Source of the DNA: an archaeon | Lineage (GTDB): Archaea; Nanobdellota; Nanobdellia; Woesearchaeales; SM23-78 | NCBI GenBank assembly: GCA_043801165.1 | Contig: JAZDMG010000007.1 | Coordinates: 6,155-70,154, forward strand | Length of the DNA: 64,000 nucleotides | Direction of reading: 5' to 3' | Shown here: positions 7,622 to 64,000 of the stretch, piece after piece | How the letters are laid out: every line of letters begins with the position of its first letter | Numbering within the stretch: the first letter of the stretch is position 1 | The notes under the pieces: model-generated | Told to the model about the DNA's origin: nothing | Databases searched by the model: none | The model's input: only the letters and a program-made list of their open reading frames with translations | Made by a program: the position numbers and the translations under genes

Positions 7622-7810
7622 TTGGCCAGGACTGAGGTGCTCAACGTCAGGATACCGGACGAGCTAATTCTAGAATTAGACTCCCTTGTGAAGAAACGCA
7701 TCTTCAAATCACGCTCAGAAGCTATACGAGAATTCGCCAGAGAATACGTGCAGCAACAGATGCACGTGGAAAACGCCAAAGTATCTGAACGGGGAGGGGG
7801 AAGATGGTAG
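7622..7810 (+). CDS. Ribbon-helix-helix (CopG-like) DNA-binding protein
   Basis: 62 aa with a TTG start after an AGAGG SD. VLNVRIPDELILELDSLV...SRSEAIREFAREY is the classic RHH beta-alpha-alpha pattern. Confidence 0.65.
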   Translation: MARTEVLNVRIPDELILELDSLVKKRIFKSRSEAIREFAREYVQQQMHVENAKVSERGGGRW

Positions 7811-8073
7811 ACGCTGTAGTGAGCGTGAGGATGCCATCCTCCCTTGTTCAGAGACTTAAACAGCTTTCAAAGGACAACCATTTCTTAGATGTGAGCGAGG
7901 AGATCAGGAGCCTGGTCAAATCAAAAATACGGACATACAAACTGCAGGCAGGAGAATCTGTCTCCGAAGAGCCACAGGCAAAAAAGAAAGATGATTTCAA
8001 GACAGAGAATGTTGTCAAGGAAGAGCTGGTCAAGCGGCTCAAGCAGATGATAAAGGAACTGGAGCATGACTAA
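7804..8073 (+). CDS. Second RHH-like small protein with acidic tail
   Basis: 89 aa; overlaps the upstream gene by 7 nt. VSVRMPSSLVQRLKQLSK...SEEIRSLVK is RHH-like. Confidence 0.5.
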   Translation: MVDAVVSVRMPSSLVQRLKQLSKDNHFLDVSEEIRSLVKSKIRTYKLQAGESVSEEPQAKKKDDFKTENVVKEELVKRLKQMIKELEHD

Positions 8074-11000
8074 TATGGAAAGATTATTGATTGGGATGAG
8101 AAAAGCGGCCTTGGTCCTAGCGATGCTGCTCTTCACCATGATGATCATGAATATCGCGTCAGCAAGCATAGACCTGGTGAGCCCGGCGAACAGCAGCCAG
8201 CTCAATCAGCGGCCGGTTGTCTTCGACTATTATGCCGGCATGGAGAATGCCAGCAGTTGTACGCTAAAGATAGACTCATCAACTGCAGACGAGAGCACCA
8301 ACATAACCAGCCTAGGATTCAATCAGATGAGCGCTAATCTGAGCCAAGGAGAGCACGAGTGGATGATAAGCTGCACAGACGGCTTGAACGTGGATGACAG
8401 CGAGACAAGAAGGCTCCTATTCGACGGCAGCGCACCGACAGTGGTGCTCTTCTCTCCGCAGGACAACGCCGCAATCAATCTTTCGTCGGTAGAATTCAGC
8501 TTCGTGGCAGTCGACAACATCGCAGAGAACATAGCCTGTGAGCTTATCATCGATGGCAGCATCAACGCCAGCATGAACGTGACCAACAGCGTCCCAACCT
8601 CCAAGATCGTCGGCTCACTGAGCGACGGGCTGCACCAATGGCAGGTCAGATGCAATGATTCTGCATCCAACTCAATGACTAGCGAAAGCATATCATTCAC
8701 GATCAACACCACCCGGCCAGAACCTGTGTTCGGGCTGGTGCTTCCAAGGACAGAATTTTACGCCGGAGAGCAGGGCACAATGATGCTCGTATTCCCAACC
8801 GGAAGCAATGCAAGGGTAGAGACCTGCCCTGACAAGCCCGGATTCGTCGAGTGCAACATAACACTCAACAGCCAGAACCTTTCAGGCTCACCGATGGAGA
8901 AGGCGCTTCCCTACTATCTCACCGAGGGCAGATATATCGTTGAGGCATACTTCAATTATTCTGGCTACAGCGCCACTAAGGTCGAGAGATACAATGTGAC
9001 CAGCAGCATAAGCATAGGAATAAAGGATGTTGACAGGCCCAGGAAGAACGAGGTCATAATCCTTGATGCGGACGCATCAGGCGGAATAGCGCCTCTCATA
9101 TATAGCTGGCGCCTAAGCAACGGATCAGTGATTGAGGATGACAAGGTCAACATAACCTATGCCCTGCCAGGAAATTACACCAACACTGTAACTGTGAAAG
9201 ACGCTTTCAACAACTCAAGGAACAAGAGCATAACATTATTGGTGAGCAACTCATTCAGCGCAAAGGTCTATATAAGAGATGCTGAGACCAACGCAGCCAT
9301 CAGCAAGGCCACCGTTGAGCTCGATGATCTTGTGAAGACAACAGACACCACCGGTCTCGCAGAGTTCGCAGTCAGGGAGGGAAAACGGGATGTGCTGGTG
9401 CTGAGAGAGAACTATTCAGGCTACAATGGCGAGCTGAACATAACCAAGGACGAGAGTTTCACCATAGCTCTGCAGCCGACAAATTTCACAGCGACCAATC
9501 CAAGGGTCTCGCTTATCAGCCCGACCAATAATTCAGGCATTCCAATGACTGAGATAGAAGTGGCGTTCAGTGTCGAGCACAGGGATCGCGTGAACTGCAC
9601 GGTCTACATCAACGAGCAGAATGATGGGTTCTACATAAACCTGGGAAGCATGGATGTGAATGCCAATGATTATTCTGAGCAGAGGTTCATGATATTCGAG
9701 CTGGAGAACAAGAGCTACTGGTGGAAGGTGGAATGCATAGACTCAAAAGGCAGGAGTGGCAAGAGCGAAACAAGGAGGATTCTGGTCGGCTCTGAAGCTA
9801 TAAAGGCTTTCCAGACAGCCGATCAAGGACAGGGCGATGATATCACCCAGCGGTTCACAAAGCGCGTGAAGGAATATGAGCAGATTATCAATGATTTTAA
9901 TTCATTGCCTAACAATGTCAGGGAAGCTGCTATGATGTTCGGCATCAGGACAGGATTGGAGAGCGCCATTAGCAAGATGAAGAACGCCATCAGAGACATA
10001 GATGGCCTGCAGTTCAATTCAGCCTTGACACCAGAACAGCTGGCTGCTGAAAAAAAGAGCCTTTCAGATGATGCAGAGATAGCTTACCAGAAAGCGCCGA
10101 TCTCCATCGAGCTCACCGGCGAAGAGACATTTGTTGATTACATACAAAGTGAAGAGCTCGAAACGCTGATCAATGAATACTTCGCAGCCAAAGGCAACAA
10201 CAATAGCGGTTTCAGCATGAACAAGGTCCTGGAGTTCACGAACGATCTGCAGCAGGAAGTGGTCATATCGAGCAAAGTGAAAGGGTTCAGTGTGACTTTA
10301 AAGGATGGGACTTCACAGGAATTCACAGGAATCATAAGAGAGGTAAAGACCTACAACATAACAAAAGGGGCATTCCTCCTTGAGATAATCCCTAAATCAG
10401 TAGCGACAGATGCCTCGGAGATCATGAGCGAGCAGAGGTTCGAAGTAATCAAGAATGACCCTATAATCAAGGTTCCTCTGAGCGGAGACCTTACATGGGC
10501 GTACTACTTTGCCAAGAAAATCCCTCTTGAGAACCTGAGAGATGCCAAGACCGCTGTGTTCATGGATCCTGATGCCATGCCCGCAGATAGGATAACTGGA
10601 TTTTCCATAACAAAGATCAAGCTTCCGAACCTCAAGTTCGCATTCATTTCAGTGATAATAATACTGCTAGGGGGCTTGATATTTGTAGGAATCAAATATG
10701 ACGGCCTCAACGCAGCCAAGTACGCGCTCTACAGGATGCAGAAGAAGCAGAGCCTCCATTACATAAATGTCATCCTCAGCGACATAGAGGATAATCTGCA
10801 GATGGGATACTTGGAGAAGGCATTCGAGCTCTACGAAGAGGCCAAGAACACATACTCATTCCTGCCGACCATGGCAAAGAACGACATATACCCTCGGGTG
10901 GTTGATATCAGCGGCAAAATGGAACTGTATTACAACAAGACAAATTCAGACATGAAAGATGATGATAGAAGAAAATCCCTGAACGATATCAAGTCAAGGA

Positions 11001-11176
11001 TACTCACAATACAGGGCCTGCTGAACAGCGGGCGCATCATGCCTGCATTAGAGGAGTACAAGATAATCGAGCATGATTATAATTCATTGGATGATCAGAC
11101 AAAGGCATTATTCCATCCAGCCCTAGTTGATCTGGGCAACAAGATCCAGATCGTGATTGACAGCAACAAAGGCTGA
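8066..11176 (+). CDS. Large bitopic surface protein (Ig-like repeats, PKD domain, CarboxypepD_reg-like domain, C-terminal TM plus helical cytoplasmic tail)
   Basis: 1036 aa with a signal peptide ending NIASAS. ~95-aa repeats of the same W-x-V-x-C-x-D type as in the giant gene. PKD-like segment IAPLIYSWRLSNG...YTNTVTVKDAFNN. TM segment FAFISVIIILLGGLIFVGI near nt 10630-10690. Many N-x-S/T sequons. Confidence 0.8.
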   Translation: MTNMERLLIGMRKAALVLAMLLFTMMIMNIASASIDLVSPANSSQLNQRPVVFDYYAGMENASSCTLKIDSSTADESTNITSLGFNQMSANLSQGEHEWMISCTDGLNVDDSETRRLLFDGSAPTVVLFSPQDNAAINLSSVEFSFVAVDNIAENIACELIIDGSINASMNVTNSVPTSKIVGSLSDGLHQWQVRCNDSASNSMTSESISFTINTTRPEPVFGLVLPRTEFYAGEQGTMMLVFPTGSNARVETCPDKPGFVECNITLNSQNLSGSPMEKALPYYLTEGRYIVEAYFNYSGYSATKVERYNVTSSISIGIKDVDRPRKNEVIILDADASGGIAPLIYSWRLSNGSVIEDDKVNITYALPGNYTNTVTVKDAFNNSRNKSITLLVSNSFSAKVYIRDAETNAAISKATVELDDLVKTTDTTGLAEFAVREGKRDVLVLRENYSGYNGELNITKDESFTIALQPTNFTATNPRVSLISPTNNSGIPMTEIEVAFSVEHRDRVNCTVYINEQNDGFYINLGSMDVNANDYSEQRFMIFELENKSYWWKVECIDSKGRSGKSETRRILVGSEAIKAFQTADQGQGDDITQRFTKRVKEYEQIINDFNSLPNNVREAAMMFGIRTGLESAISKMKNAIRDIDGLQFNSALTPEQLAAEKKSLSDDAEIAYQKAPISIELTGEETFVDYIQSEELETLINEYFAAKGNNNSGFSMNKVLEFTNDLQQEVVISSKVKGFSVTLKDGTSQEFTGIIREVKTYNITKGAFLLEIIPKSVATDASEIMSEQRFEVIKNDPIIKVPLSGDLTWAYYFAKKIPLENLRDAKTAVFMDPDAMPADRITGFSITKIKLPNLKFAFISVIIILLGGLIFVGIKYDGLNAAKYALYRMQKKQSLHYINVILSDIEDNLQMGYLEKAFELYEEAKNTYSFLPTMAKNDIYPRVVDISGKMELYYNKTNSDMKDDDRRKSLNDIKSRILTIQGLLNSGRIMPALEEYKIIEHDYNSLDDQTKALFHPALVDLGNKIQIVIDSNKG

Positions 11177-11189
11177 CAAAGGCAAAAGA

Positions 11190-11915
11190 ATGACTGCTGA
11201 AAGCAAAATATCGAATCTTGAAAAGATGGCATGGCTTATCTTAGCAGCCAGCCTGCTCTGCTTGAATGCTGCGATGGTCATGGGAGTGCAGGGAGCAGCC
11301 ATCACACCGGGAGCCAGCAGCAGGGCCAATTTCAACCAGAGCTCGAGCGCCAGCCTTCCTGTGCAGGCAGGTAATGTCACACGCCTGGATATCTCAGGCA
11401 AGGCAATCAGCACCCATTGGGCTGGATTTTTTGGAAACGTATCAGGCAATCTGACATTGGAAGACGCGAGCGGCAACACATTCTACAATTGGGTAGGACT
11501 AGGCATACCTACCGGCGAAGTGTTCGCCTCAAACACAAGCACTGTCAATTGGAGCGGCATCAGCTGCGCAAACAGCACAAGGATAGCCATCATAGAGACC
11601 TCGCTGGGGATAGCATCCACCGATGCTGACAAGATCTCAGCGACATACACCAACAACAATCATCCTCCATTCAATGTCAGCAGTACCTTGCTCACTGGCT
11701 GCAACAGCACCAACGCCTACACCAACACAGGCCAGAGCGCTTCACTGTATTACCAGATACTCCTCATTGACAACCAGAACAGGCCGGTTTACACTACCCT
11801 GATAAATGATACGGCGACGAGTTTCACAGGAACAACCTATGACTTCGAGCTGCTCGTAGGAGAGGCTGACTCCGCAGGGACCACATCAATGTACTTTTAC
11901 ATAGAGATAGATTAG
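11190..11915 (+). CDS. Secreted/anchored protein paralogous to the ectodomain of the downstream HerA-like ATPase
   Basis: Hydrophobic N-terminus MAWLILAASLLCLNAAMVMG. Motif ladder HWAGFFGNVSG, GEVFAS, LGIASTDADKISATYT and FTGTTYDFELLVG is matched in 11921-15877. The ORF is open from TTG 11157. Confidence 0.7.
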   Translation: MTAESKISNLEKMAWLILAASLLCLNAAMVMGVQGAAITPGASSRANFNQSSSASLPVQAGNVTRLDISGKAISTHWAGFFGNVSGNLTLEDASGNTFYNWVGLGIPTGEVFASNTSTVNWSGISCANSTRIAIIETSLGIASTDADKISATYTNNNHPPFNVSSTLLTGCNSTNAYTNTGQSASLYYQILLIDNQNRPVYTTLINDTATSFTGTTYDFELLVGEADSAGTTSMYFYIEID

Positions 11916-11920: not shown

Positions 11921-14900
11921 ATGATATTTCATATAACGACTGAAGGAAAAAACAAGATGGCAGATGCAAAAAACAGGAGAGAGATGATGTTCAGGGTATT
12001 GATACTGCTGATGATCATCCTCTCATTCAAGGGACTCATCACCGTTGTTGAGTTCCTCGGCTACGCATCACTTGATTCAGAAGGAGGCACAATCTCAGAG
12101 ATAGACCTGACTATAAAATATGATGTGGCGAGCTGGAGCGCGCTCTATGGCACTGCCTGGGGAGTTGGCTGGAGCCAGGACTGGGAATTCAACATGACAG
12201 GCAACACCTCGCTCTCCCAGGCGATGAATGAGAAGCATCTGCTGTTCAACTGCTTTGAAGCAGGAATCGAACATGAGATATACGCCAGCATGGTGCCGTC
12301 GATCGACATTGATTTCGCCAGCCTAACAGCCGCTACCACTGCAGAATATGACGCGTATATGGGTATTGGCTCAAGCTCATTTTATTCTGCCACCAACACT
12401 TTCACATCGATAGATACATACCAGATGGGAGAACAAACAATCAATGCGCCGACCACCTACACGTTTGTGACAGGCAACACGACCCCGACAAGTTTCGCAA
12501 CAGGAATCCTGAGGGATTCATCAGGCAATCTTGTGCTGGTGACCAAGATACTGCAATATCCAGTCACTGGTTTCCAGGGTTCAAGATTCAACTATCAGAT
12601 AATGCTGCCCATACCTCCAGAAACATTCCAGGATTATTTTGTCTGGAGCGACCCGACAGATGTCTGCCCAGAAGGCCAGGGCACTGCGCCATGGGAAGGG
12701 TGGGTCTATGGAAATGTCACCGATACCAACGGCAATCCAGTAAGCGATGCTATCGTAGAGGTGGCAGGAGAGACTGACCTAAGCGACAATATCACAGGAG
12801 CTTATAACATAACTTCAGAAGAAGGTAACAAAACCATCTATGCCATGAAGACAGGGTACCGAGTATACAGAGGGAACGTCACCATATTGAGAGGCAACGG
12901 GACTGTGCACAATATCGTGATGGTGATGGAGCAGCCGCCTAACCCTCCGTTGACAGGAATAGGCCCAGGAATCGACGCACCAGGCACCCAGACCCAGACA
13001 GGAGTTGACTCAGAGGGGATAAAGACAAAGGATGCATCCTATGACTTGCCTCCGGTGATGCAGCGCCCAAAAAAGATAGAAGGGACTGATTATATAGTAT
13101 CCATCTCTGAGATAAATAGGAAGATCAGGCTAGGAAATTTCCTCCAGGAGAAAGTGACCCTTTACAGCTTCAAGGAGAAGCAGGCCAACATAAACTTCGC
13201 ACTTGAAGGGAATGTATCACATCTCATAAAATTGGACAAGGAGAGCATGATGCTCTCGCCTCGCTCATCTGACTTCCTGACAGTGACCATCTTTGGAGTG
13301 GGAGAGCCAGGATTATATAACGGTAGCTTGGTGATGTCTGGTGATTTCAATGCCACAATCTCTATCACAATAGAGGTACTGGACAAGGAGAAGCTGCCTG
13401 TCGAGGCGCTGCTGATAGACCTTGAGATGAACAAGAAGACTGTGTTCCCGGGAGACACCATCCAATTCAAGACAGATCTCAGGAACCTGCTCACAGACCA
13501 ACAATATCCCGTGGCCTTGTTCTATAGCGTCCAGAGCCTTGACGGAAAAGACACCCTATGGACCTATGAGACCAATGCCTTCATCAGGACATCGTTCTCC
13601 ATGCTTAAGAGCGCGATGCTGCCAAAGAATGCGAAGACAGGAGACTATGTGCTGAGAGTGACTGCCAGCTATCTCGGTCTCACATCAGGGACCAGCACCA
13701 TGTTCAGCATCACCACGCCATGGTACCTTGTGATATTGTTCGGATCATTGAGAGTCTGGCACGGATTACTTATCCTATTAGTCATAGTGCTCATGGGATT
13801 GGCCTATTGGCAGATCAAGAAGAAGATAGAATCAAAGAAGAAATTCCACCTGAAGGTCGAGATGGCTGAGCTGCCAAAGCCAGGGGCGAGGAGCATCTGG
13901 GTCGGAAAGATCGCAGAGACAGACCACAAGACCTATTTCAACATGGAGAGCTTCATGACTCACTGCATCGACGCAGGAAGCACAGGCAGCGGCAAGTCAG
14001 TATCAGCCCAGGTCATAGTTGAGGAGATGCTACAGAAAGGAGTGGCTGTGATCGTGTTCGACCCGACAGCACAATGGACAGGAATGCTCAGGAAATGCGA
14101 TGACAAGACAATGCTTGCGCTCTATCCATATTTTGGGATGAAGCCGAAAGATGCCAGGCCATTCAACGGCAACATCAGGCAGGTCACCAACCCGCGAGAG
14201 ATCATCGACATAAAGAAATATGTCAAGCCAGGCGAGATCCAGGTATTCGCCTGCCACAAGCTTGAGCCGAGAGAGATGGACATCTTTGTGACCAATAGCA
14301 TCAGGCAGATCTTCAGGGCTAACTTCGGAGAGAGCAGAACCCTTAAAGTCCTGTTTGTCTATGATGAAGTCCACAGGTTGCTGCCGAAGTTCGGTGGTAG
14401 CGGCGAAGGTTTCCTGCAGATAGAAAGAGGCTGCAGAGAGTTCAGAAAATGGGGTCTGGGCATGCTTCTCATCTCACAGGTCCTGACAGACTTTGTCGGT
14501 ACCATCAAGGCCAACATCAACACAGAGATCCAGATGAGAACAAGGGACGAGGGCGACCTTGAGAGGATCAAAGTGAAGTATGGTGATGATGTCCTCAAAT
14601 CACTGGTCAAGGCAACCATAGGAAGCGGGATGATAGAGAACCCGCAATACAACCGAGGTAAGCCATATTTCACAGCATTCAGGCCGCTCATGCACAGTGT
14701 GCAGAGGCTGACTGACGAAGAGATCGAGAAATATAACGAGTACAATGACAAGATTGACCAGATGCAGTTCGAGCTTGAGCAGCTTGAGAAACTGGGCATC
14801 GATATATTCGACCTGAAACTAGAGCTGAAACTTGCGACTGATAAGGTAAAGACAGGAAGCTTCAACATGGCCCAGATCTACCTGGAAGGCCTCGCGCCAA

Positions 14901-15877: not shown

Positions 15878-15900
15878 ATAATTGAAAAACTGATGCGATC

Positions 15901-16386: not shown

Positions 16387-16484
16387 GCGACGTCGCCAGG
16401 CAATCATGCAAATCAAAAGATATAAAAGCATATGAAGGAGCAGGAGAAGAATATCATTGATAATACCATAATAACAGCAAATCG

Positions 16485-16650
16485 CCACTCGAGCCTATCC
16501 TCGGACTAAAGTCCGAGGTTTTACGGCTCTCGCATGTATTGGCGGTTTGCTGGAACAAGCAAGCTTTAGCTTGCTGGTCAAGCAACAACAGTTGCTTGAA
16601 TGAGTGGACTCGCACTAAAGTGCGGGGTTTTAAACCCTACGAGTCCACCC
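16485..16650 (+). ncRNA. Candidate structured RNA or multi-hairpin element in an intergenic gap
   Basis: Four perfect GC-rich stems in ~160 nt of non-coding DNA. (1) 16499-16518: 8 bp, loop TAAA, nested in 16491-16495/16525-16529. (2) 16558-16575: 7 bp, loop TTTA. (3) 16579-16598: 8 bp, loop AACA. (4) 16604-16612/16640-16648: 9 bp, enclosing two small hairpins. Strand and function unknown. Confidence 0.25.
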
Positions 16651-16695
16651 ATAACATTATCAATTTCGATTTGATTTCAAAAAAGAGGTGAGCAG

Positions 16696-18752: not shown

Positions 18753-18753
18753 A

Positions 18754-50331: not shown

Positions 50332-50341
50332 ATATTGCAAA

Positions 50342-55036: not shown

Positions 55037-57004
55037 TTGGATAACAGGACGAAGTCAAAGTATCTTGGAGTGCTCCTACAGACGGTGCTCAAGGTAGATG
55101 ACGCCATGTTCGGCCAGAGAGTGAGCCCTGAGAAGCATGACTACGCAGACTGGATAGCAAAGAACATCAAAGACGAAGAGCTGGCTAGCCAGCTGAGGCC
55201 ATTCATCCAGAAAGATGCCATCGTCAAGTTCCTGCAGGAAAAGATCGCAGAGCTGAGCCAGGATGCGGCAGCAGCACAACCAACACTCCGACCGGCGCCT
55301 GAAAATCCGACAGCAACAGTACAGATCAAGCAGATGGATGGTAAGATTAAGGCGAAATACCTCGGAGTGCTGGTGCAGACGATTCTGAAGATGGACGAGG
55401 CTACATTCAGGATAAGGGTCAGCCCTGAGAAGCATGACTACGCAGACTGGATAGCAAAGAACATCAAAGACGAAGAGCTGGCAGAGGAGCTGCGCTCAAT
55501 CAGGCATAGGCAGAGCGTGCTTGAGTTCCTGGCTGACAAGATCGCAGAGCTGGGCGGGGAAGCGCCCAACATACCGATGCCATCGACGCCAGCAATAGCA
55601 CTGAAAACAGCACAGGCAATGCAGCCGCCAGAGAGAACAGATGAACCAATACACGACCTGATGCCTACTACGATGCAGTCTCATGAAGAGACAAAGCCAA
55701 AGCAAGAACAAGAGATAGATTATCTCAGAGACATAAACGAAGATCTCCATTTCGTGCTTCCAAACGGAAAGACCATCGGAAGCCTGCCGGAGCTGGCCGA
55801 GCTGATGCCTGCAATGGATGATGCGCATTTCAGCGCGCACGTGACCCCTCACAAGAATGATTTCGCAGCCTGGATCTACCACTCGATAAAAGACGAGGAG
55901 CTGGCGAACAGCATCGGGAATGTCAAGGACAAGCAGCAGATTATGGAACTGATCAAGGCAAGGATCACTGAATTGGCAGGCAAGAGCATAGTCACCGATA
56001 GCCTTGAAGCAATGAAAAAGCAGGGAGCTCAGGCACCGGCACCACAGAAGAAGGATGAAAAGAAAGAAGAAAGAGAAAAGGAAGAAAAGAATCATACAAA
56101 ACCAGCAGAAAAACCAGCTGTCGAGAGACCATACCTTGCTGCCAAACCAAAAGAGGAAAAAATAGACCTGATGAATCTCTCAGCCATCGAGATACTAAAG
56201 AAACTAGGCTTGATCAGGGACAACACCCAGTTCCTGGCTTTGGAAGAGGAGATAAGCGAGATCAGGAAACAGAGAAAGACTATCGCAACAGGAGTGCCTG
56301 GCTTTGATGACATGATCGGAGGAGGGATCCCGGTAAATTCCACAATACTAGTATCCGGAGGGCCTGGAAGCGGAAAGACAACTTTCTGCATACAGATGCT
56401 TGGCTGGGCCGCAGAGCAGGGAGAGAAGTGCCTATTCCTGACATTTGAAGAGACCGAAGAGCAGCTCATAGAGCATATGGAGGCATATGGCCTGAATCCC
56501 AAAAAATATCTGGAAAAAGGCACACTGATGATCCAGAGACAAGATCCTTTCAAGATATCAAGGATGGTCGAGGCATTGCTCGCCCATGCAAGAGGAGAAC
56601 TGCTGATAAACATAGATGAGATAATCGACATACTGCCAAGGGGATACAAGCCTGACCGGATCGTGGTTGATTCGCTTTCTGCGATATCAGCAGCATTCTC
56701 TGAATCCAACACAGCATACAGGGTGTATGTCACCAAGCTGATGAGCCTGCTCCAGAAGACAGGCGCCACCTCGTTCCTGATAAGCGAGGTGCAGGGCATA
56801 GAGAACATAGGCCACGGCCTTGTGGAAGAGTTCCTGGCTGATGGAGTGATAGTGTTCTATAACCTGCAGAAAGGGAACATAAAGCAGAGCGCCCTGGAGG
56901 TCCTGAAGATGAGAGCAGTGGACCATGAGAAGAGGATAGTGCCGTTCGAATTCGTGAAAGGAAGAGGGCTCGTGGTCTACCCGCTTGAGAGGACATTCAT
57001 GTGA
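55037..57004 (+). CDS. KaiC-like (RecA-superfamily, COG0467-type) ATPase with three N-terminal NDFxxWI modules
   Basis: 655 aa with a TTG start after the SD AAGAGGTG. C-terminal domain: GVPGFDDMIGGGIP...LVSGGPGSGKTTFCIQ (Walker A), IVVDSLSAI (Walker B), LKMRAVDHEKRIVPFEF. Three modules at ~55052-55255, 55349-55552 and 55745-55975. Confidence 0.85.
   Translation: MDNRTKSKYLGVLLQTVLKVDDAMFGQRVSPEKHDYADWIAKNIKDEELASQLRPFIQKDAIVKFLQEKIAELSQDAAAAQPTLRPAPENPTATVQIKQMDGKIKAKYLGVLVQTILKMDEATFRIRVSPEKHDYADWIAKNIKDEELAEELRSIRHRQSVLEFLADKIAELGGEAPNIPMPSTPAIALKTAQAMQPPERTDEPIHDLMPTTMQSHEETKPKQEQEIDYLRDINEDLHFVLPNGKTIGSLPELAELMPAMDDAHFSAHVTPHKNDFAAWIYHSIKDEELANSIGNVKDKQQIMELIKARITELAGKSIVTDSLEAMKKQGAQAPAPQKKDEKKEEREKEEKNHTKPAEKPAVERPYLAAKPKEEKIDLMNLSAIEILKKLGLIRDNTQFLALEEEISEIRKQRKTIATGVPGFDDMIGGGIPVNSTILVSGGPGSGKTTFCIQMLGWAAEQGEKCLFLTFEETEEQLIEHMEAYGLNPKKYLEKGTLMIQRQDPFKISRMVEALLAHARGELLINIDEIIDILPRGYKPDRIVVDSLSAISAAFSESNTAYRVYVTKLMSLLQKTGATSFLISEVQGIENIGHGLVEEFLADGVIVFYNLQKGNIKQSALEVLKMRAVDHEKRIVPFEFVKGRGLVVYPLERTFM
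55124..55185 (+). repeat. 62-bp perfect intragenic direct repeat, copy 1
   Basis: agccctgagaagcatgactacgcagactggatagcaaagaacatcaaagacgaagagctggc is identical to 55421-55482, 297 bp downstream. Confidence 0.9.
55421..55482 (+). repeat. 62-bp perfect intragenic direct repeat, copy 2
   Basis: Identical to 55124-55185 and in frame (99 codons apart). Confidence 0.9.
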
Positions 57005-58494
57005 ACAAAGGAAAGCCAAGATACGGAGAGAGAACAGCTGGAGCAATAGCTCTCTTCATGCTTCTCATGATAATGATGCTAGCGATGCTGGCAGGCATAG
57101 ACCTGGCCGCAGCAAAAGAGGCAGAATCAAACACCACGCAGACTGACGCGAGCCTGCTGATAACAAAGCTCGAGAGGAACATCACATCCCTGAAAGAGAG
57201 AGGATTCAACACCCCGCGCCTTGACGACGCACTTATGGATGCGAAAGCAAGCTATGCTGACAGGAAATTCGACCAGGTGCTAAGGCTGTACAGCGAGAGC
57301 ATTCTCACAATCTCAAAGATGATGTACGTATCAAGCGAGATCAACATGACATCAATGCTGCTGGATGAGGCAAAGAAGAGAGAGCTCAACATCTCTGAAT
57401 CCATGGGCCATTACACTCTCAGCCTCAGCGATTTCAGGAATAACAACCTTGATGCCGCCCAGAAAGAGATAGCGCAAAGCAAGGAGCTGGTGACAGACCA
57501 GCTGATGACAGAATCCACAATGATAATAGCTGACCTGAAAGAGCTTGCTGCGGCTCTGGCCAGCACAGGGATAAACGCGAATGCTGTCAACAGGACCACG
57601 GCTGATATCCTGGCCGCAGAGAGATCAAAAGATTTCATAAGACTCTTCATCCTGGCCAGCAGGATCTCTGAGATGAACACCTCGATAGCTGGGCTGCTGA
57701 CGATCAAGGAAAAGATGAACCGGCTTGAGGCAGATGGTTATAGCATCAATAGGATAAATGATACCATTGCTGAGCTGGAGAGCCTTCTTGATGCAGGAGA
57801 GTACACCCAGCTGAGCAAACGCTACAACGAGACCATATCACTGATAGGAAAGATATATTCTGTCGATAAAGGCATCAAGAAGACTGAAGCAGGGATTGGC
57901 TCTCCTGAGCTGGCAGGGATAGACCTGACCGAGGCATCAGAGCTGCTCAACACAAGCAAGAGCGAGTTCGATCTTGAGAACTATGAGAAGTCAGAGGACT
58001 ACCTTGCTAGAGCAAAGGCTTCGCTCGCAGAGGCAGAGCAGGCAAACATATTCGCCACCATACTAAACAAGGCAAAGATGAGATTTGACCCGATATCATT
58101 CCTCAAGAAGAACTGGTTGTCGCTCATATTGGCAATACTAATCGGAGGGATTGTGATAAAGGTCGGAGGCTTGTTCCTAGTCTTAAAAAAGAGCGAGCAG
58201 AAGCTTGCTAAGCTCAAGAAAGAGGAAGAAGCAATCACAGAGCTGATGATAAAGCTCCAGGAGGAATATTTCAAGGAGAAAATAATCGATAAGGATACCT
58301 ACGCAGCTGAGAACAATAGCTTCGAGAAGAGATTGACACAGATCAGCGAAGAGATCCCGCTGCTGATTATCAGGATAAAAGAGAAACGTGAAAAGCTTGC
58401 CAAGATGAGAATGTCAAAACACAAGACTGCAGATGACCACAAGGCAACAGATCACAGCAAGGCAGAGACTGACAGCACATCAACGAACAAATAA
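57001..58494 (+). CDS. Stalk-TM-tail membrane protein (helical ectodomain, TM, cytoplasmic LQxxYF motif)
   Basis: 497 aa. The GTG start overlaps the KaiC-like stop (GTGA). N-terminal anchor AIALFMLLMIMMLAMLAG, all-helical ectodomain, and second TM WLSLILAILIGGIVIKVGGLFLVL. Tail ITELMIKLQEEYFKEKIIDKDTY at nt ~58243-58280. Confidence 0.7.
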   Translation: MNKGKPRYGERTAGAIALFMLLMIMMLAMLAGIDLAAAKEAESNTTQTDASLLITKLERNITSLKERGFNTPRLDDALMDAKASYADRKFDQVLRLYSESILTISKMMYVSSEINMTSMLLDEAKKRELNISESMGHYTLSLSDFRNNNLDAAQKEIAQSKELVTDQLMTESTMIIADLKELAAALASTGINANAVNRTTADILAAERSKDFIRLFILASRISEMNTSIAGLLTIKEKMNRLEADGYSINRINDTIAELESLLDAGEYTQLSKRYNETISLIGKIYSVDKGIKKTEAGIGSPELAGIDLTEASELLNTSKSEFDLENYEKSEDYLARAKASLAEAEQANIFATILNKAKMRFDPISFLKKNWLSLILAILIGGIVIKVGGLFLVLKKSEQKLAKLKKEEEAITELMIKLQEEYFKEKIIDKDTYAAENNSFEKRLTQISEEIPLLIIRIKEKREKLAKMRMSKHKTADDHKATDHSKAETDSTSTNK

Positions 58495-58562: not shown

Positions 58563-59657
58563 GTGAACAATAATACAGATAATGTGGAAAGTCAGAATGC
58601 AAATCCGCCATTTTTCTTAAAGAGCGGAAAAAAGATAAGCGAGCTCAATGAGCTGAAGGATTATCTCTTAACAATCCAGCCAGGCGAGTTTCACCACCAT
58701 GTCACTTCTGAAAAGAATGACTTCGAGAGCTGGATAAGGCACGGCCTCAAAGAAGAAGAATTAGCCAATAAGGTAATAAACGTCAAAATCCCGGAAGAGC
58801 TAATCGCCATAATCAAACAATTCCTGAACGCCGGCTTAGAACAGGCCAAAGAGCAGGTAAAACCAGATGAAACAGCCAGCGACAGCAAAACAATCAGCGT
58901 AATCAGCGAGTTCATACCAGAACAGACCTATATCAAGACAGACGTCCCTGGATTCGATGAGCTGATAACCAACGGCATTCCAAAAGAGAGCGCAGTGCTT
59001 GTATGCGGAGGACCAGGAACTGGGAAAACCACCTTCTGCCTCAATCTCATATGCAATGCAGCGAAAAAGGGAAGCAAATGCCTCTACCTAACATTTGAAG
59101 AAGACATAATAAACCTCAAGAGGCACATGAAGAACTTCGGATGGGACGGAGCTTCAAAGGGAGCGGCAGAGAACATGATAGTGAAGAAGATGCAGCCGTT
59201 CGACATAAGCCGGTCAGTCGAAGCACTCCTGGCAAAAGCCAGCGGCGAGCTCACCATAGAATTGGATGAAGTAGAAGGAGTCATACCTTCTGGCTTCCAC
59301 CCAGACATAATCATACTTGACTCGCTCTCGGCAGTAGCTGCCGCATTCTCAGGAAAAGAAGAAGGATATAGGATCTACATAGAGCAGCTTTTCTCCCTTT
59401 TCAAGAAGATTGGCGCAACCTCGTTCCTGATAACAGAGATAGAGCAGGACACCACCAAGTACAGCAAGAGCGGGATAGAAGAATTCCTGGCAGATGCGGT
59501 GATCGTCTTCTACAACATAAGAAGCAAGAACATACGCATAAACGCCCTTGAGATACTCAAGGCCAGAGGAACTCCCCACCAGAAGAAGATCGTCCCATTC
59601 AAGATAGTCACAAACAAAGGAATCGTGGTCTACCCGACAGAAGAAGTCTTTACCTAG
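58563..59657 (+). CDS. KaiC-like ATPase with one N-terminal NDFxxWI module
   Basis: 364 aa with a GTG start after the SD AAGAGGAAG. Module HHHVTSEKNDFESWIRHGLKEEELANKV. KaiC-like domain with GGPGTGKTTFCLN, IIILDSLSAV and LKARGTPHQKKIVPFKI. Confidence 0.85.
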   Translation: MNNNTDNVESQNANPPFFLKSGKKISELNELKDYLLTIQPGEFHHHVTSEKNDFESWIRHGLKEEELANKVINVKIPEELIAIIKQFLNAGLEQAKEQVKPDETASDSKTISVISEFIPEQTYIKTDVPGFDELITNGIPKESAVLVCGGPGTGKTTFCLNLICNAAKKGSKCLYLTFEEDIINLKRHMKNFGWDGASKGAAENMIVKKMQPFDISRSVEALLAKASGELTIELDEVEGVIPSGFHPDIIILDSLSAVAAAFSGKEEGYRIYIEQLFSLFKKIGATSFLITEIEQDTTKYSKSGIEEFLADAVIVFYNIRSKNIRINALEILKARGTPHQKKIVPFKIVTNKGIVVYPTEEVFT

Positions 59658-59695: not shown

Positions 59696-62600
59696 GTGCC
59701 GATGTTCATATCATTTCAGAAGCATAGGACCAAGAGAATCGTATGCATAATAGCCACGCTGATATTCTTAGCCATAGCATCGCTTCCTGAATTTCCAGAA
59801 TCGGCATTAGCATACACAGGAAATTTCTCCACAGGATCACCGTTCAGCTGCGGCCCAAACTGTCTCGGGCCATATGAGCTGTTCGGGCATGACACCGAAT
59901 ACTGCAAGCTGAATATCGAGGAATGCTTCAACACCATCGACGGATGCAAGGACGGACCGCAGGCCACCTATGAATTCGTTGACAACATAACCATCACCAA
60001 CCTTAATGGTTCAACATTCACAACAGAGAATGTCATCAATATCGATGTGGCTGTTGACTGCGACAGCGACGGAGATATTGTGTCTATAGCATATCACAAT
60101 GGAAGCTCGTTCAGGAACATATACAACGTGAATTGCACAGTAGAAGGGAAGACCAACATATACTACAATACGACGCTAGACAACGTGCGCGGCAACCATA
60201 CTGTGAGAGCAATAATAGGCTTTCCCGGGCTGTCAGGAGTGACCTGCGGAGAGCAGACATCAAACCCTGCCTGGACTGACACAGATGACGTGACTTTCGC
60301 TGTCGCCACAAATGATATCATCCCTCCATCTGTCAGCAATCCTACGCCTGAGCCAAGCTCAATCTTCGAAGCGCAAGAGAACCTTGAAGTCCTCATCTGC
60401 GTAGAGGCGACCGACAACTATGGGATTGAAAGCGTGTGGATGGACGTATGGTGGGATGAAGGCGAGGAGATAACCCAGATATTCGATGCCGGAGAAAACC
60501 AATTCTGCGATGGCTTCGCCTCCACCACAGACCTCGGCGACTACCTGGTGCAATTCATAGTGAATGACACATCAGGAAACCTGAACGACGCAGTGACCAC
60601 CAACTTCACCATAGCGCACATAACCAACATCACAATCAGCAGCCCGACCATAGGGCTGATCCAGCCAGTGGGAACAACGTATCTCAATTTTACATTGCCT
60701 GACAACTATGATGCCAACGCAATCTACTACTCGCTCGACAACGGGCAGAATATCAGCATCAATGACGGGAGAGTGAGAGCATCATGCGCAGCTTCTGACG
60801 CCAACGGAACACGCGGAGAGAAGGACAATGTCTTTGCCAACCTGTCCATGTCTTTCATCCCTCGAGAGAACATCAGGTCAAACAGCATAGGCCTAAGCCT
60901 AATGAGAAACGGGTCAGGAACATCTGATGCGCAGCTGGAGATAAGGTCTGACAGCTCAGGCAGCCCATCCGAGACTTTGATAGCCAACGGGACAATCATC
61001 AACAGCAGCGTCAGCTCCGAAGGATACTCATTCGTCAACATCACCCTCAACACGACAGTCAATCTCACAAAAGACACTATGTACTGGCTCTTCCTGGAGC
61101 CGGATGGATCAGGAACTGACTTCTACACTTGGGAATCAAGTGATGATGGTGCCTGCAGCGACGGAAACTACAGCAACAACAGGTCGCTTGACCTGCTGTT
61201 CAGTGTATACGACAAATACCGATTCAGGACAACCATAGAAGGCCTGTCACAGGATGACCATAACGTGACAGTCTATGCCAACAGCACTTATTTGGGCCCG
61301 ATAATATCCCCGACAATCAGCTTTGAGATCGACCACACCAATCCCCGCATCAACCGCATAGCATACAGCCCCAACACAAGCGTGCAGCTTGATCCTGGCA
61401 GGCAGATAAACTTCACCATCAACGTGACCGATGATGCAGAAGTAAGCGGAGTGGTGCTCCAGTACAGGCAGAGCAATGAGAGTGAATTCACCAATCGCAC
61501 AGCTAGCCACAGCGGAGCCATCTATGCAGCTAACTTCACTCCGCAGGACGAGAACAACTGGACTGCACGGATTGTAGCGATCGACAGCTCAAACAACACA
61601 AACACCAGCGGAGAGATAACACTTGCGGTGTTCAATGAGCATGGATGGGTAAGCAGCCCATTATCATTCAACACAACATCAGCGCTGATTAGCCAGAACA
61701 GCACCATAGGGAACATAACCATAGTCAACAACGGAGACATCCTGCTGGATTTCAACATCTCAAGAACAGAGTCAACCATCCCATCGGTATACTTCAACAG
61801 CTCCCTGGCATCAACTATCCTGTCAGTGGCTGCATCCCGCAACGTCTCATTGCCGGTCATAGTGACCGGCCAAAGCATAGAATCTGAGCAGGAGGCATCG
61901 ATAACAATCGATGCCCTCAACGGGAGCGCAGAACCCGGTCTCACCTCGATCAATTTCACATTCATAACATTTGTATCAGGCCCTCATCTCAACATCCAGA
62001 TAACAGAATATGACCCGTCAGTGGTCCAGGGCCAGACCAGAGTCACTGTCACCGCAAGGATAACCAATGTCGGGAATGATACCGCCCATAACGTATCATC
62101 ATATTGGCAGGCGCCTCCAGGTTGGGCTGCCAAGACCAACTTCACAGCATCCTACAGCTCACTGGGCATCGGCCAGCAGGTATTCTTCACAAGGGATATC
62201 AACATAGAATCCAATGCGACAGTGGGCAACCAGACATTGTATGTATACGTGAACTGCTCTGAAGATAAGAACGACTCAGACCAGAGGACTGTGGCTGTCA
62301 GCAGCAGCCAATCAGAAGAGCAGGAGACAGTGGTAATCAGCAGAGGAGGAGGGGGAGGGAGCGGAGCGATAAAGGCCACAAAGACCTCGTCCTTGGATAT
62401 GCAGCTGCCAGATGAGGTTGAACTTGAGCGTGGGACCAACATCACCCTGGCAGGAATCATAAAGAACACAGGCGAGACTGCATTCAGCAACATAAACCTT
62501 ACGCTGAGCGGGTTCTCACTGCTCCACCAGAAGATCAGCCCTGAAAAGATCGGCCAGCTCCTAGTGAATGAGTCAAAAGAGTTCAGATTATTCATAAGCG

Positions 62601-63586
62601 CCCCTGACTACTCTGGAAGCGAGAAATACGAAGCCATCCTTGCCGCAGAAGCCATGGCCGATGGCAAGAAAGAAAAATTCACGCATAACATCGTGATAAT
62701 AATATTCACCGAAGACAAAAAGCTCGCCTCAGAGTGCTTTGACAAGGCAAGGTCAGGAATCACAGGCCTGGAGAGCAAGAACATAGCCACTGGCCTGATT
62801 GTCGAAAGGATGGATGAATCTGCCAAGAGATACGACAGCAATGAATACTTCGATGCCCTGGTGCTATGCAACAGCATACTCACGGATATAGGCAAGGCCA
62901 ACAAGCTAAAAGACGAGCTTGAGCTCCTGAACAGCATGTACTCTGAACTCGGGGCTGAAAACCAGCAGATAACATCGCTGATCACACTATCCCAGGAGGC
63001 ATTCGGAAGGGAAGAATACGCCTTGGCCGAGAGAAGGGCTGAAGAGGCTAAGATGCTCATAGGGCTCAAGAAAAAAGATATTGAGCAGACGATACCCGGC
63101 AGGATCAGCCAGCTGAAATCACACGCCAAAGAGGCTATCCTGATGATAGTCATACTCTCAATCATATCAGTCTTTGCTCTCTCATCAAGAAGCCTGACCC
63201 TGGTAAAAAAGAGGATTGATGACCTTGAGAGCCGCAAAAATATGATCAAGAAGAAGATAAGCGAAGTCCAAGAACAGTATTTTGTCAGGAAGATAATTCC
63301 TGCAAGAGCCTATAACCAGGAGATGGAGCAGCACAGGAATGACCTGGCTGACCTCGAAAAGAGGAGAAGCGAGCTGAATCTCAAGAGGCTCAGGATAACA
63401 AGCGGAAACTCGCGCAATGACCTGAACAAGATAAGGCTTGAGACTGAGGAAGCCAAGAAGGCCCTCCAGAGGAGATACTATGTGGAGAAGGCGATGGACA
63501 GCGAGAGCTTCAAGAAGATGAGCTCAGGGCTGGAGAGCATACTCCAGGAAATAGGCACAAAGCTCTCGATGGCAAAGAAGAAGTAA
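59696..63586 (+). CDS. Bitopic surface protein (1296 aa), paralogue of 37198-41478
   Basis: Same order of parts as the paralogue. Cys-rich N-domain (CGPNCLGPYE...DGCKDGPQATYEF vs CACGDRCHGPYE...CQDGPDQSEYEY). NEW3/CARDB-like ITNVGNDTAHNVSSYWQAPPGW. Poly-Gly at ~62344-62365, helical stalk, and TM at ~63133-63190. Two tail motifs at ~63263 and ~63461. Start is GTG 59696 or ATG 59702. Confidence 0.85.
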   Translation: MPMFISFQKHRTKRIVCIIATLIFLAIASLPEFPESALAYTGNFSTGSPFSCGPNCLGPYELFGHDTEYCKLNIEECFNTIDGCKDGPQATYEFVDNITITNLNGSTFTTENVINIDVAVDCDSDGDIVSIAYHNGSSFRNIYNVNCTVEGKTNIYYNTTLDNVRGNHTVRAIIGFPGLSGVTCGEQTSNPAWTDTDDVTFAVATNDIIPPSVSNPTPEPSSIFEAQENLEVLICVEATDNYGIESVWMDVWWDEGEEITQIFDAGENQFCDGFASTTDLGDYLVQFIVNDTSGNLNDAVTTNFTIAHITNITISSPTIGLIQPVGTTYLNFTLPDNYDANAIYYSLDNGQNISINDGRVRASCAASDANGTRGEKDNVFANLSMSFIPRENIRSNSIGLSLMRNGSGTSDAQLEIRSDSSGSPSETLIANGTIINSSVSSEGYSFVNITLNTTVNLTKDTMYWLFLEPDGSGTDFYTWESSDDGACSDGNYSNNRSLDLLFSVYDKYRFRTTIEGLSQDDHNVTVYANSTYLGPIISPTISFEIDHTNPRINRIAYSPNTSVQLDPGRQINFTINVTDDAEVSGVVLQYRQSNESEFTNRTASHSGAIYAANFTPQDENNWTARIVAIDSSNNTNTSGEITLAVFNEHGWVSSPLSFNTTSALISQNSTIGNITIVNNGDILLDFNISRTESTIPSVYFNSSLASTILSVAASRNVSLPVIVTGQSIESEQEASITIDALNGSAEPGLTSINFTFITFVSGPHLNIQITEYDPSVVQGQTRVTVTARITNVGNDTAHNVSSYWQAPPGWAAKTNFTASYSSLGIGQQVFFTRDINIESNATVGNQTLYVYVNCSEDKNDSDQRTVAVSSSQSEEQETVVISRGGGGGSGAIKATKTSSLDMQLPDEVELERGTNITLAGIIKNTGETAFSNINLTLSGFSLLHQKISPEKIGQLLVNESKEFRLFISAPDYSGSEKYEAILAAEAMADGKKEKFTHNIVIIIFTEDKKLASECFDKARSGITGLESKNIATGLIVERMDESAKRYDSNEYFDALVLCNSILTDIGKANKLKDELELLNSMYSELGAENQQITSLITLSQEAFGREEYALAERRAEEAKMLIGLKKKDIEQTIPGRISQLKSHAKEAILMIVILSIISVFALSSRSLTLVKKRIDDLESRKNMIKKKISEVQEQYFVRKIIPARAYNQEMEQHRNDLADLEKRRSELNLKRLRITSGNSRNDLNKIRLETEEAKKALQRRYYVEKAMDSESFKKMSSGLESILQEIGTKLSMAKKK

Positions 63587-63609
63587 CCCGAAAAAAAAAG
63601 AGGCGACAT

Positions 63610-64000
63610 ATGACGGATGCAAGAAAAGCAATCAGCGAAGCATCAGCAGCCATAATCCTCCCTGTCATGGTTCTAATCCTTATCCTGATGCTAGCAGCTC
63701 CTGCCGCGGCAGCAGCGTCCGATGATTATCGCCAGGCGCTGAAGACAGGGCTGTTGGAGCTGGCTTCGGTAAAAGATGATATGAACCGCAGCGGAGCAGG
63801 AACATTGAGGGTGAGCGACCTCATCACAGAAGGATTCTTTTACCTGGACAGGAATGACCTTGAGAATGTTGAGAAGCGGATATCTGAGGTGCATGAGCTG
63901 AGAAACCTCTCGGAAACCGCAAAGGCAGGGCTCATCGCCTGCGAAAGGCTGCTGAAGGACATCAATGACAGCAACAGCCTGACCCAAAACCAGGATGAGA
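63610..64000 (+). CDS. N-terminal part of another stalk-type membrane protein (runs off the window)
   Basis: The ATG at 63610 follows the SD AAAGAGG, and the frame is open to the window end (my own translation; not in the supplied ORF track). TM AIILPVMVLILILMLAAPAAAAA is followed by helical sequence resembling the start of 57001-58494. Confidence 0.6.
   Translation, partial: MTDARKAISEASAAIILPVMVLILILMLAAPAAAAASDDYRQALKTGLLELASVKDDMNRSGAGTLRVSDLITEGFFYLDRNDLENVEKRISEVHELRNLSETAKAGLIACERLLKDINDSNSLTQNQDE

Follow-up and report, generated by a model that had tools for sequence, protein, structure and literature searches.

What does a chemotaxis pathway control in an archaeon when its genes lie among genes for giant surface proteins? 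To our knowledge, the archaellum, reached through CheF, is so far the only known target of archaeal chemotaxis, and we know of no archaeal chemosensory pathway with an alternative output of a non-flagellar type. The question is raised by a 64,000-nucleotide stretch of contig JAZDMG010000007.1 (assembly GCA_043801165.1; the whole stretch is hereafter referred to as the window) from a DPANN archaeon of the Woesearchaeales. In this window, a complete che operon is placed between two clusters of genes that encode P-loop ATPases and heavily glycosylatable surface proteins. We assign a probability of roughly 0.5 to the reading that the region encodes a signal-controlled module of the cell surface, specific to DPANN archaea, in which a phosphorelay controls a tethered complex of KaiC-like and inactive KaiC-like proteins and so regulates attachment. 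Within this reading, the proposal that Che would feed a KaiC hub tied to adhesins is well supported by genomic context, and the Che pathway probably communicates with a cell-surface adhesion apparatus.

We annotated the window from a listing of its open reading frames (ORFs) combined with Pfam and NCBIfam scans, and compared all of its proteins with collected loci from other genomes. Loci L001–L080, 80 loci almost all from DPANN archaea, were obtained by scanning genome collections with an alignment of KaiC-like proteins that carry the DUF5752 domain; L081–L091 were gene-context look-ups centred on relatives of the window proteins KaiC655 and CheA. Counts over 80 loci refer to L001–L080 and counts over 89 loci to L001–L089. 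As controls, we used 80 non-DPANN che loci (about 1 Mb; CheA 30–46% identical), which were among the matches listed in a metagenome scan with a CheA alignment.

A first-pass annotation, made from the sequence without database searches, had described a complete che operon ending in a degenerate KaiC-like gene, and the profile scans bear this description out. The genes concerned are as follows.

41590–50331, + strand: che operon encoding CheB, CheA, CheY1, CheY2, CheC1, a receiver (REC)-CheD fusion, CheR, a Zn-ribbon protein, a methyl-accepting chemotaxis protein (MCP) and CheW (Pfam).
50279–50968, + strand: CheC2, a divergent CheC/FliY-like protein (Pfam CheC; NCBIfam CheC/FliY below cut-off).
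50968–51510, + strand: K180, an inactive KaiC-like protein of 180 residues (DUF7504 at 32.5 bits, cut-off 27; KaiC, E 3e-4).

The archaeal che set is complete above the Pfam cut-offs, and CheA has the Hpt, P2, dimerisation, HATPase and CheW domains. Among NCBI proteins from metagenome-assembled genomes (MAGs), CheA is 100% identical to MFH0869536.1 and KaiC655 to MFH0869550.1. A survey of 352 genomes states that DPANN archaea are without chemotaxis (PMC9680633); in contrast, dozens of CheA relatives with 45–88% identity are annotated in MAGs of Woesearchaeota, Nanobdellota and Nanoarchaeota, and the next relatives outside DPANN, from Methanoperedens and Methanolobus, are 43–44% identical. CheC1 retains two phosphatase sites, and its orthologues keep both motifs. 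CheC2 has the first active-site motif only, and among its orthologues at most one of the two motifs is left; this loss of the second site would fit a candidate role as an adaptor that binds phosphorylated CheY (CheY-P). K180 lacks a Walker A motif (no GxxxxGK[ST]) and keeps a Walker-B-like IIFDSLS, and the profile of its family matches KaiC (6e-5) and then FlaH/ArlH (4YDS; 9e-4) in the PDB.

The operon had also been said to lie between paralogous clusters. Indeed, BLASTP aligns the surface proteins S1426 and S1296 with an E-value of 1e-61 and the ATPases KaiC655 and KaiC364 with one of 4e-96.

8066–11176, + strand: S1036, a bitopic surface protein of 1036 residues (signal, PKD/Big_13 ectodomain, transmembrane segment at residues 851–869).
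11921–15877, + strand: HerA1318, a membrane-anchored HerA/FtsK-type ATPase (Pfam DUF87/HerA_C and DUF5752).
18159–18752, + strand: h197, a paralogue of h171 (BLASTP, 33% identity, E 2e-15).
18754–37149, + strand: G6131, a giant glycoprotein of 6131 residues, secreted or N-terminally anchored (351 sequons).
37198–41478, + strand: S1426, a large bitopic surface protein of 1426 residues (two LQxxYF tail motifs, residues 1291–1335 and 1359–1402).
54475–54990, + strand: h171, a paralogue of h197 by BLASTP, always directly upstream of a DUF5752-KaiC gene.
55037–57004, + strand: KaiC655, three DUF5752 modules and one active single-domain KaiC-like ATPase (Pfam KaiC, E 1e-48; DUF5752).
57001–58494, + strand: h497, a small stalk-transmembrane-tail protein (one LQxxYF tail motif, residues 407–452).
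58563–59657, + strand: KaiC364, one DUF5752 module and an active KaiC-like ATPase, which opens a canonical cassette (Pfam/NCBIfam KaiC).
59696–63586, + strand: S1296, a large bitopic surface protein of 1296 residues (two tail motifs, residues 1181–1223 and 1249–1289).
63610–64000, + strand: N-terminus of a small stalk-transmembrane-tail partner that runs off the window end (tblastn homologues in related loci).

Cluster 1 consists, in order, of genes for two ribbon-helix-helix (RHH) proteins, S1036, h252, HerA1318, two coiled-coil proteins, h197, G6131 and S1426. On the 3′ side of a low-GC island follow h171, KaiC655, h497, KaiC364, S1296 and the start of another h497-like protein. The nearly uniform orientation reported earlier is correct: all genes from position 7622 to the window end are on the + strand, with the 2.5-kb island at 51675–54188 as the sole exception.

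The large surface proteins of 1036, 6131, 1426 and 1296 residues that had been picked out as saturated with sequons are all present as such. Each has an N-terminal signal or anchor segment, and the sequon (N-x-S/T) density is 2.6–5.7 per 100 residues in surface proteins versus 0–1.2 in cytoplasmic ones. Their domains, taken together, are PKD, Big_13, Big_7, CARDB, DUF2341 and NPCBM_assoc. G6131 contains DUF2341, Big_13, Big_7 and CARDB by Pfam, shares Ig-like repeats with S1036 and has no C-terminal transmembrane segment; orthologues of 5101–6074 residues occur in L083, L084, L086 and L089. An orthologue of S1426 (1425–1495 residues) is found between the giant gene and the che operon in L084 and L086, and L014 has an orthologue of S1296, 46% identical, in the equivalent position.

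The LQxxYF tails proposed from the sequence proved to be real. S1426 and S1296 have two copies each and h497 has one, in every case just past the C-terminal transmembrane segment; the helical cytoplasmic tail of S1036 (about 165 residues) is without the motif. A suspected resemblance of the motif to SHOCT domains found no support, as the tails gave no Pfam SHOCT match even at E ≤ 10. h497 consists of a signal, a helical ectodomain, a transmembrane segment (residues 368–386) and the tail; it aligns with the C-terminal portion of S1426 (E 1e-15), to which it is homologous. The first-pass annotation had paired h497 with the protein starting at 63610 as stalk-transmembrane-tail proteins. The topology of h497 agrees with this, and the 63610 protein is homologous to such proteins in relatives; a mutual relationship of the two was not seen, BLASTP giving no match between them.

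The three P-loop ATPases share one adaptor module, as had been noticed, and this 'NDFxxWI' module is Pfam DUF5752 (PF19027). Six copies are present in the window, two in HerA1318, three in KaiC655 (residues 1–73, 91–172 and 230–313) and one in KaiC364, and within the window the domain is confined to these ATPases. Against the Pfam cut-off of 23, KaiC655 scores 44.2 bits, HerA1318 27.7 and KaiC364 21.3, just under; an HMM (hidden Markov model) derived from the loci detects the KaiC364 module with an E-value of 2e-28. Both KaiC-like ATPases keep Walker A (GGPGSGKT in KaiC655, GGPGTGKT in KaiC364) and score far above the PF06745 cut-off of 26.6 bits (165.7 and 161.4, respectively). In the PDB, KaiC364 best matches the KaiC CI domain (E 1e-43) and PH0186. 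They do not correspond to the cyanobacterial circadian KaiC, as each has a single KaiC domain and the score with the NCBIfam KaiC equivalog is 129.6 bits, the cut-off being 408; no window protein has a Pfam match to KaiA or KaiB. HerA1318 has a transmembrane segment at residues 26–44, an ectodomain of about 560 residues, a second transmembrane segment at 610–628, the P-loop domain and two C-terminal DUF5752 modules (residues 1057–1139 and 1232–1314). Its DUF87 P-loop domain passes the Pfam cut-off (40 versus 23.2 bits), and NCBIfam gave no equivalog-level match to HerA, TraD, CedD or VirB4 (best 32.7 bits against cut-offs of 366–970). Orthologues are found in L015, L016 and L020.

DUF5752 occurs in about 13 of the 89 loci, in KaiC-like and HerA-like ATPases, stand-alone small proteins, adhesin tails and CheW. 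In L015, L020 and L049, it forms the C-terminus of the cytoplasmic tail of a large surface protein, and in L088 (3542–4372, − strand) the C-terminus of a 276-residue CheW (E 4e-21). This spread is what would be expected of a tethering module that unites ATPases, adhesin tails and the chemosensory array. The AlphaFold2 (AF2) model of the domain (pLDDT 85.5) is a small β-hairpin with a helical bundle, for which the only structural match is OrfY of Thermoproteus tenax (PDB 4CSO; Foldseek probability 1.0, TM 0.66 over the query, but E 0.047 and 19% identity). We know of no function for OrfY, so that the fold of DUF5752 gives no function either; a full-text literature search returned no paper on DUF5752 or OrfY.

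Synteny in related genomes had been proposed as a check on the linkage between che genes and these clusters. We found the che genes, the CheC2/K180 pair, the DUF5752-KaiC gene and the giant or tail-anchored proteins to be syntenic in at least six genomes. The order che…CheC2-K180-h171-KaiC/DUF5752-h497, together with giant adhesins, recurs in at least six other DPANN genomes whose CheA proteins are 50–88% identical to that of the window, and in several of them a tail-anchored protein of 1400–1500 residues is also located nearby. L001, L002 and L004 have this arrangement. L084/L085 keep the order (CheA 88% identical), and L089 has a CheY-CheY-CheC2-K180-x-KaiC run inside its che operon. On a single 395-kb contig (GCA_016930415.1, L081 and L086; CheA 61% identical), the entire sandwich is kept, and the equivalent of the window end is followed by a small tail protein, a 194-residue protein, a second inactive KaiC, a REC protein and a histidine kinase. 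In view of the gene order in L081 and L014, genes for an inactive KaiC, a REC protein and a histidine kinase should follow just beyond the end of the window as well. L083 has both window clusters merged into a single array, without an adjacent che operon. The separate assemblies with this order come from NCBI, ENA, JGI and Logan. Homologues of K180, the cassette KaiC, h497, S1296 or h171 were found in none of the 80 control che loci among the matches listed. Three of six CheA-centred loci have the K180/KaiC/giant arrangement (L084, L086 and L089); L088 has the CheW-DUF5752 fusion and four genes of the h252 family, L090 has none of these features, and L091, the sixth, combines archaellin genes with KaiC and inactive-KaiC genes, as described below. 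What the sequences show directly is the domain content and topology of the proteins, their paralogy, the conserved order of the genes and the fusions of domains.

The surface proteins and ATPases also recur in DPANN loci at large. An HMM of the tail motif identified 75 ORFs in 47 of the 80 loci, typically as a set of a large protein (1100–3000 residues, two motifs) and a small one (270–500 residues, one motif) beside a KaiC gene; across the 89 loci, large and small tail proteins are directly adjacent 19 times. Separate genes for K180 homologues were located by tblastn in 49 of the 80 loci and by the ORF census in 57 of the 89, and a K180-type inactive KaiC lies within three genes of 50 of the 109 KaiC genes in the 89 loci. 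Over the 80 loci, the K180-type gene directly adjoins one or two stand-alone REC genes 14–18 times, in cassettes without a che operon, and a CheC-like gene nine times. A Pfam census of the 150 nearest unlabelled neighbours returned HATPase_c (12), HAMP (12) and HisKA (11), as well as PAS and Cache, such that sensor histidine kinases (11–12) are the only recurrent extra neighbours of the cassette. Pilus or archaellum families were not among the 25 most frequent families shown by this census, and a T2SSE-like motif was found in none of the 80 related loci. These neighbour and adjacency counts lead to a general unit of the form (kinase) → REC → inactive KaiC/KaiC plus large and small tail-anchored proteins. 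The window contains one canonical copy of this cassette, which begins at 58563 and is cut by the window end, and a second copy with a whole Che pathway as its input.

From this context, we infer the protein–protein contacts, the direction of signalling and the cellular output of the module; the direction from sensor to adhesin is read from the upstream place that kinases, MCPs and REC-only proteins usually take. The core cassette comprises four parts: a KaiC-like ATPase with a single, active domain; a large bitopic glycoprotein with two LQxxYF helices in its cytoplasmic tail; a small stalk-transmembrane-tail partner that has a single helix of this kind; and an inactive KaiC of the K180 family. 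Its input would be a His-Asp phosphorelay. In most DPANN loci, this would consist of one or two stand-alone REC proteins, near whose genes a membrane sensor kinase is often encoded; in the present genome and those closest to it, one copy would be wired to a complete Che pathway instead. MCP, CheW and CheA would then phosphorylate CheY1 and/or CheY2, and CheY-P would be read by the single-site CheC2 and/or K180. K180 may join or cap the ring of a KaiC-like ATPase and shift its nucleotide or oligomeric state. The ATPases, tethered via DUF5752 together with the membrane HerA-type ATPase, would act on the tails of the large and small pair and so alter the display, clustering or conformation of the adhesins. 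The predicted output is regulated attachment to a surface or a host cell, with G6131 as the presumed distal adhesin. The first-pass annotation had suggested a route from Che through the KaiC-like ATPases to the adhesin tails. Synteny, the adjacency of K180 and REC genes, the histidine kinases and the DUF5752 fusions (one to CheW and three to tails) speak for this route, in which the contacts themselves are deduced from context.

In a bolder version of this scheme, the region would encode an unrecognised, ATP-driven surface machine of DPANN archaea, with KaiC-like and HerA-like ATPases docked via DUF5752 to the tails of giant adhesins and steered by Che through a CheC-like/inactive-KaiC switch. 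We put this forward tentatively and consider it rather unlikely.

Whether the pathway might instead serve an archaellum was addressed by several searches. The earlier statement that the 64 kb contain no arlB, arlI, arlJ or cheF and no gene for a pilin with a class-III signal holds in Pfam, CheF and class-III-signal searches. The searches of the window returned no archaellin, ArlI (T2SSE), ArlJ (T2SSF) or small pilin with a class-III signal, and no type IV pilus/Tad Pfam families (pilins, PilB/TadA, PilC/TadC, prepilin peptidase). CheF (PF04283) had no match among the window proteins or the annotated loci L081–L091, and CheF was found in none of the DPANN loci that contain che genes (L001–L002, L004 and L081–L091). 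CheF is normally located in archaeal che regions (PMC6718144). Using the Pyrococcus horikoshii CheF from that paper as a query, phmmer and tblastn detected nothing in the window or in L001–L089; this single distant query is insensitive, and in a large protein collection it matched only CheF of Thermococcales. Within 10 kb of che genes, arl genes were absent from the fetched DPANN che loci except L091.

Several findings weigh against the signal-controlled surface module. Its support is genomic context throughout, and the absence of an archaellum covers the 64-kb window only. L088 and L090, which are CheA-centred loci of the clade, have no K180 within 10 kb. The REC proteins beside the inactive KaiC do not group clearly with CheY1 or CheY2, and the one protein matched by the DUF5752 fold, OrfY, has no known function. 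The che operon of L091, whose CheA is 55% identical to that of the window, is directly preceded by four tandem archaellin genes (1–2113) and yet is accompanied (14404–19027) by two DUF7504 inactive-KaiC genes and a trio of KaiC (234 residues; not ArlH), REC and inactive KaiC. A KaiC hub therefore need not point at adhesins. Archaellum genes (flaB/H/I/J/K), moreover, are reported from most Woesearchaeota MAGs, with archaellin among the top transcripts (PMC11606122, PMC8407392), and CheABCD transcripts were reported from one such MAG in a 2024 study (PMC11606122). L091 and these reports speak for an alternative in which Che would steer an ordinary archaellum encoded elsewhere in the genome, with CheC2, K180 and the KaiC-like ATPases as an accessory signal-processing hub and the adhesin genes merely co-located, or co-regulated to switch between swimming and attachment. 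The hub could then, for example, take the place of CheF/ArlCDE in DPANN archaea, or act in adaptation or as a phosphatase module. The rank of FlaH/ArlH as the second-best PDB match of the K180 family profile is consistent with such a role, and two conserved CheY paralogues could serve two outputs. This explanation nevertheless has to contend with the presence of K180 near the KaiC/tail cassette in about 50 DPANN loci, mostly without che genes and with no detected ATPase of the pilus or archaellum type, and with the DUF5752 fusions, which join CheW, ATPases and adhesin tails. The cassette KaiC-like proteins, furthermore, fall short of the NCBIfam ArlH model (43.6 bits for KaiC364, and 60 bits, against a cut-off of 215). 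We regard an archaellum as the sole target as possible, but would not expect it. Taken together, L091 and the other loci make the connection of CheY/REC to inactive KaiC/KaiC look general; the effector may not be the same in every genome, or there may be two.

A purely regulatory circuit, in which the phosphorelay sets the state of KaiC and KaiC in turn controls DNA binding by h171/h197 and thereby transcription of the giant and cassette genes, would dispense with a membrane machine. It gains from gene positions: the DUF5752-KaiC gene always comes directly after h171 and the giant gene directly after h197, the latter order being found in L004, L014 and L083. Three copies of AACGATAAC/GTTATCGTT, two direct and one inverted, are located at 54379–54438, 40–95 bp upstream of the h171 start, and are a candidate operator; the motif was not found upstream of h197. 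Archaeal KaiC-like proteins have been proposed as hubs (Makarova 2017, as cited in PMC5847659), and CirA regulates motility genes (PMC10983859). The first-pass annotation had seen h171 and h197 as two paralogous winged helix-turn-helix (wHTH) regulators, one opening each cluster. Their paralogy stands (E 2e-15), but the searches for a wHTH fold gave no significant match, and cluster 1 opens with the RHH genes, h197 being placed directly ahead of the giant gene. Neither protein has a Pfam match, their family profile found nothing in the PDB, the AF2 model from a two-sequence input has a pLDDT of 40, and the register of the N-terminal 70 or so residues with HTH_5 in hhalign is not significant (E 0.16). 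h197 is possibly a DNA-binding regulator. As h171/h197 homologues occur in 8 of the 89 loci versus about 50 with the cassette, and as the tail motifs and the DUF5752 fusions to adhesin tails and CheW would be left unexplained, we consider a circuit of this kind improbable. An accidental neighbourhood in one MAG, or an assembly chimera, might be suspected from the nature of the contig and from the low-GC insertion and the insertion-sequence-type integrase in the window. It is contradicted by the conserved synteny, repeated in assemblies from four sources with CheA identities from 88% down to 50% and seen in none of the 80 control loci among the matches listed, and is in our judgement very improbable. 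The signal-controlled surface module is the reading that we retain.

The component superfamilies, the alternative chemosensory outputs of bacteria and the KaiC hubs of archaea are known already. The window shares its Che protein set with the archaeal chemotaxis-archaellum pathway, and with ArlH the placing of a KaiC/RecA-family protein between signalling and an ATPase-driven surface structure. It differs from that pathway in having no CheF, ArlCDE, archaellin, ArlI or ArlJ and KaiC-like proteins that fail the ArlH model, and the linked membrane proteins are giant bitopic glycoproteins rather than a filament. In bacteria, non-flagellar chemosensory outputs include Pil-Chp (type IV pili), Frz and Dif (Myxococcus) and Wsp (c-di-GMP). 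As in those systems, a complete Che-type pathway is here genetically coupled to non-flagellar surface machinery, with extra CheY-like and adaptor proteins; the candidate output, however, is KaiC/inactive KaiC plus tail-anchored adhesins instead of pilus ATPases, an MglA/gliding complex or a diguanylate cyclase. HerA1318 resembles membrane translocation ATPases of the HerA/FtsK type, such as the VirD4/TraD coupling proteins and CedB/CedD of the DNA-import system of crenarchaea, in its DUF87/HerA P-loop placed after transmembrane segments and in weak matches to HerA, TraD and CedD. It differs from these in its glycosylated ectodomain of about 560 residues and its two C-terminal DUF5752 modules; all of its matches are far below the family cut-offs, and there are no pore, pilus or relaxase partners at this locus.

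KaiC-like ATPases and inactivated KaiC domains of archaea have been proposed as signalling hubs (Makarova, Galperin & Koonin 2017, as cited in PMC5847659). The window resembles such hubs in its single-domain KaiC-like ATPases and Walker-A-less paralogues linked to REC proteins and histidine kinases, and departs from them, and from CirA of Haloferax (PMC10983859), in the LQxxYF tail-anchored pair, the DUF5752 adaptor and the whole che operon. Bacterial RecA binds CheW/CheA in Salmonella and Acinetobacter and affects motility, as reported in PMC7154110 and PMC7161683. This contact is a precedent for one between a RecA-fold KaiC and Che, although it involves the bacterial SOS RecA and not dedicated KaiC-like paralogues, and no adhesin cassette. 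The literature that we searched contained no description of the LQxxYF giant-protein cassette, of the DUF5752 network or of che coupling in DPANN archaea.

The remaining features of the window are as follows.

7622–8073, + strand: two small RHH (CopG-type) proteins of 62 and 89 residues, which open cluster 1 (Pfam RHH_1, E 1e-9 for the first and 7e-4 for the second).
11157–11915, + strand: h252, a secreted, sequon-rich protein of 252 residues (Sec-type signal, 4 sequons per 100 residues).
15901–17823, + strand: h161 and h375, cytoplasmic coiled-coil proteins (SMC/Rad50-like coiled-coil noise matches).
51675–54188, − strand: insertion of low GC content (27.7%), outside the system, which splits K180 from h171 and carries two orphan ORFs, one of 571 and one of 173 residues.

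Proteins of the h252 family are about 245 residues long, carry a Sec signal, are rich in sequons and have pairs of Cys that are conserved. Four paralogues stand in tandem beside the che operon of L088 (15241–21013), interleaved with HTH_5 regulators, and a related domain is present in the HerA1318 ectodomain (residues 49–229) and at the end of a 2359-residue protein of L003. The family could be a fibre or S-layer-like subunit. h161 and h375 have no Pfam family; in L083 they are kept, adjoining KaiC-h497 and ahead of h197-giant. No insert separates K180 from h171 in L001, L004 and L083; inserts of other kinds do so in L084 (RVT_1 and HAD), L081 (a kinase and a 927-residue protein) and L002 (3 kb). 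We rejected the island of the window as a defence or mobile element, as it has no PADLOC or Pfam match and no terminal repeats; neither of its ORFs has a homologue in the fetched loci. The first 7.4 kb of the window encode an AAA_14 ATPase, an rve integrase, an aminotransferase, a nucleotidyl transferase and an adenylate kinase, which are unrelated to the system. At 358–2615, the AAA_14/DUF4143 ATPase, which has a PADLOC match to the candidate defence family PDC-S01 (E 3e-97), adjoins the rve-type integrase in a stretch of 38% GC; this is probably an islet of mobile or defence genes. Searches of the window for tRNA genes and Rfam families found none.

Some features of the che operons deserve separate mention. 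The REC-CheD fusion (46344–47183) is kept in the che operons of L084 and L086, and weakly in that of L088. The 120-residue Zn-ribbon protein (48259–48621) is present in those of L084, L086 and L090; its ORF runs 64 nt past the annotated start of the MCP. This MCP (48558–49775), the only one in the window, consists of HAMP and the signalling domain with two transmembrane segments about 10 residues apart, and is without a ligand-binding domain; counterparts in L084, L088, L089 and L090 carry Cache domains. Conserved proteins of 353–357 residues with a weak CheC/FliY-like middle domain are encoded in or beside the che operons of L090 (5707–6780) and L091 (14404–15465), and are possible CheY-binding adaptors, perhaps analogous to CheF; they have no homologue in the window. 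A glucokinase-family gene is found inside the che operon in three genomes (L086 17230–18339, L090 6887–7993 and L091 7129–8235), just ahead of CheY-CheY-CheB in L090 and L091 and of CheY-CheB in L086. L090 also encodes a DUF835 membrane protein directly upstream of che (3808–5526). DUF835 has been called an inactivated KaiC domain; a relationship of this protein to K180 was rejected, the hhalign comparison being not significant (E 0.47).

How DPANN archaea find and hold their hosts is largely unexplained, and the locus bears on sensory control of adhesion in these episymbiotic archaea. In Woesearchaeota and Nanobdellota, che operons are common and are coupled to a cassette of KaiC, inactive KaiC and tail-anchored adhesins, which elsewhere is driven by ordinary two-component systems. 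CheY, CheC2, K180, KaiC, DUF5752 and the LQxxYF tails offer a concrete set of parts for the readout of a KaiC hub. If the bolder proposal of a Che-steered machine is true, this would be the first output of an archaeal Che pathway other than the archaellum, and would provide these tiny cells with a means to find, grip or move along a host.

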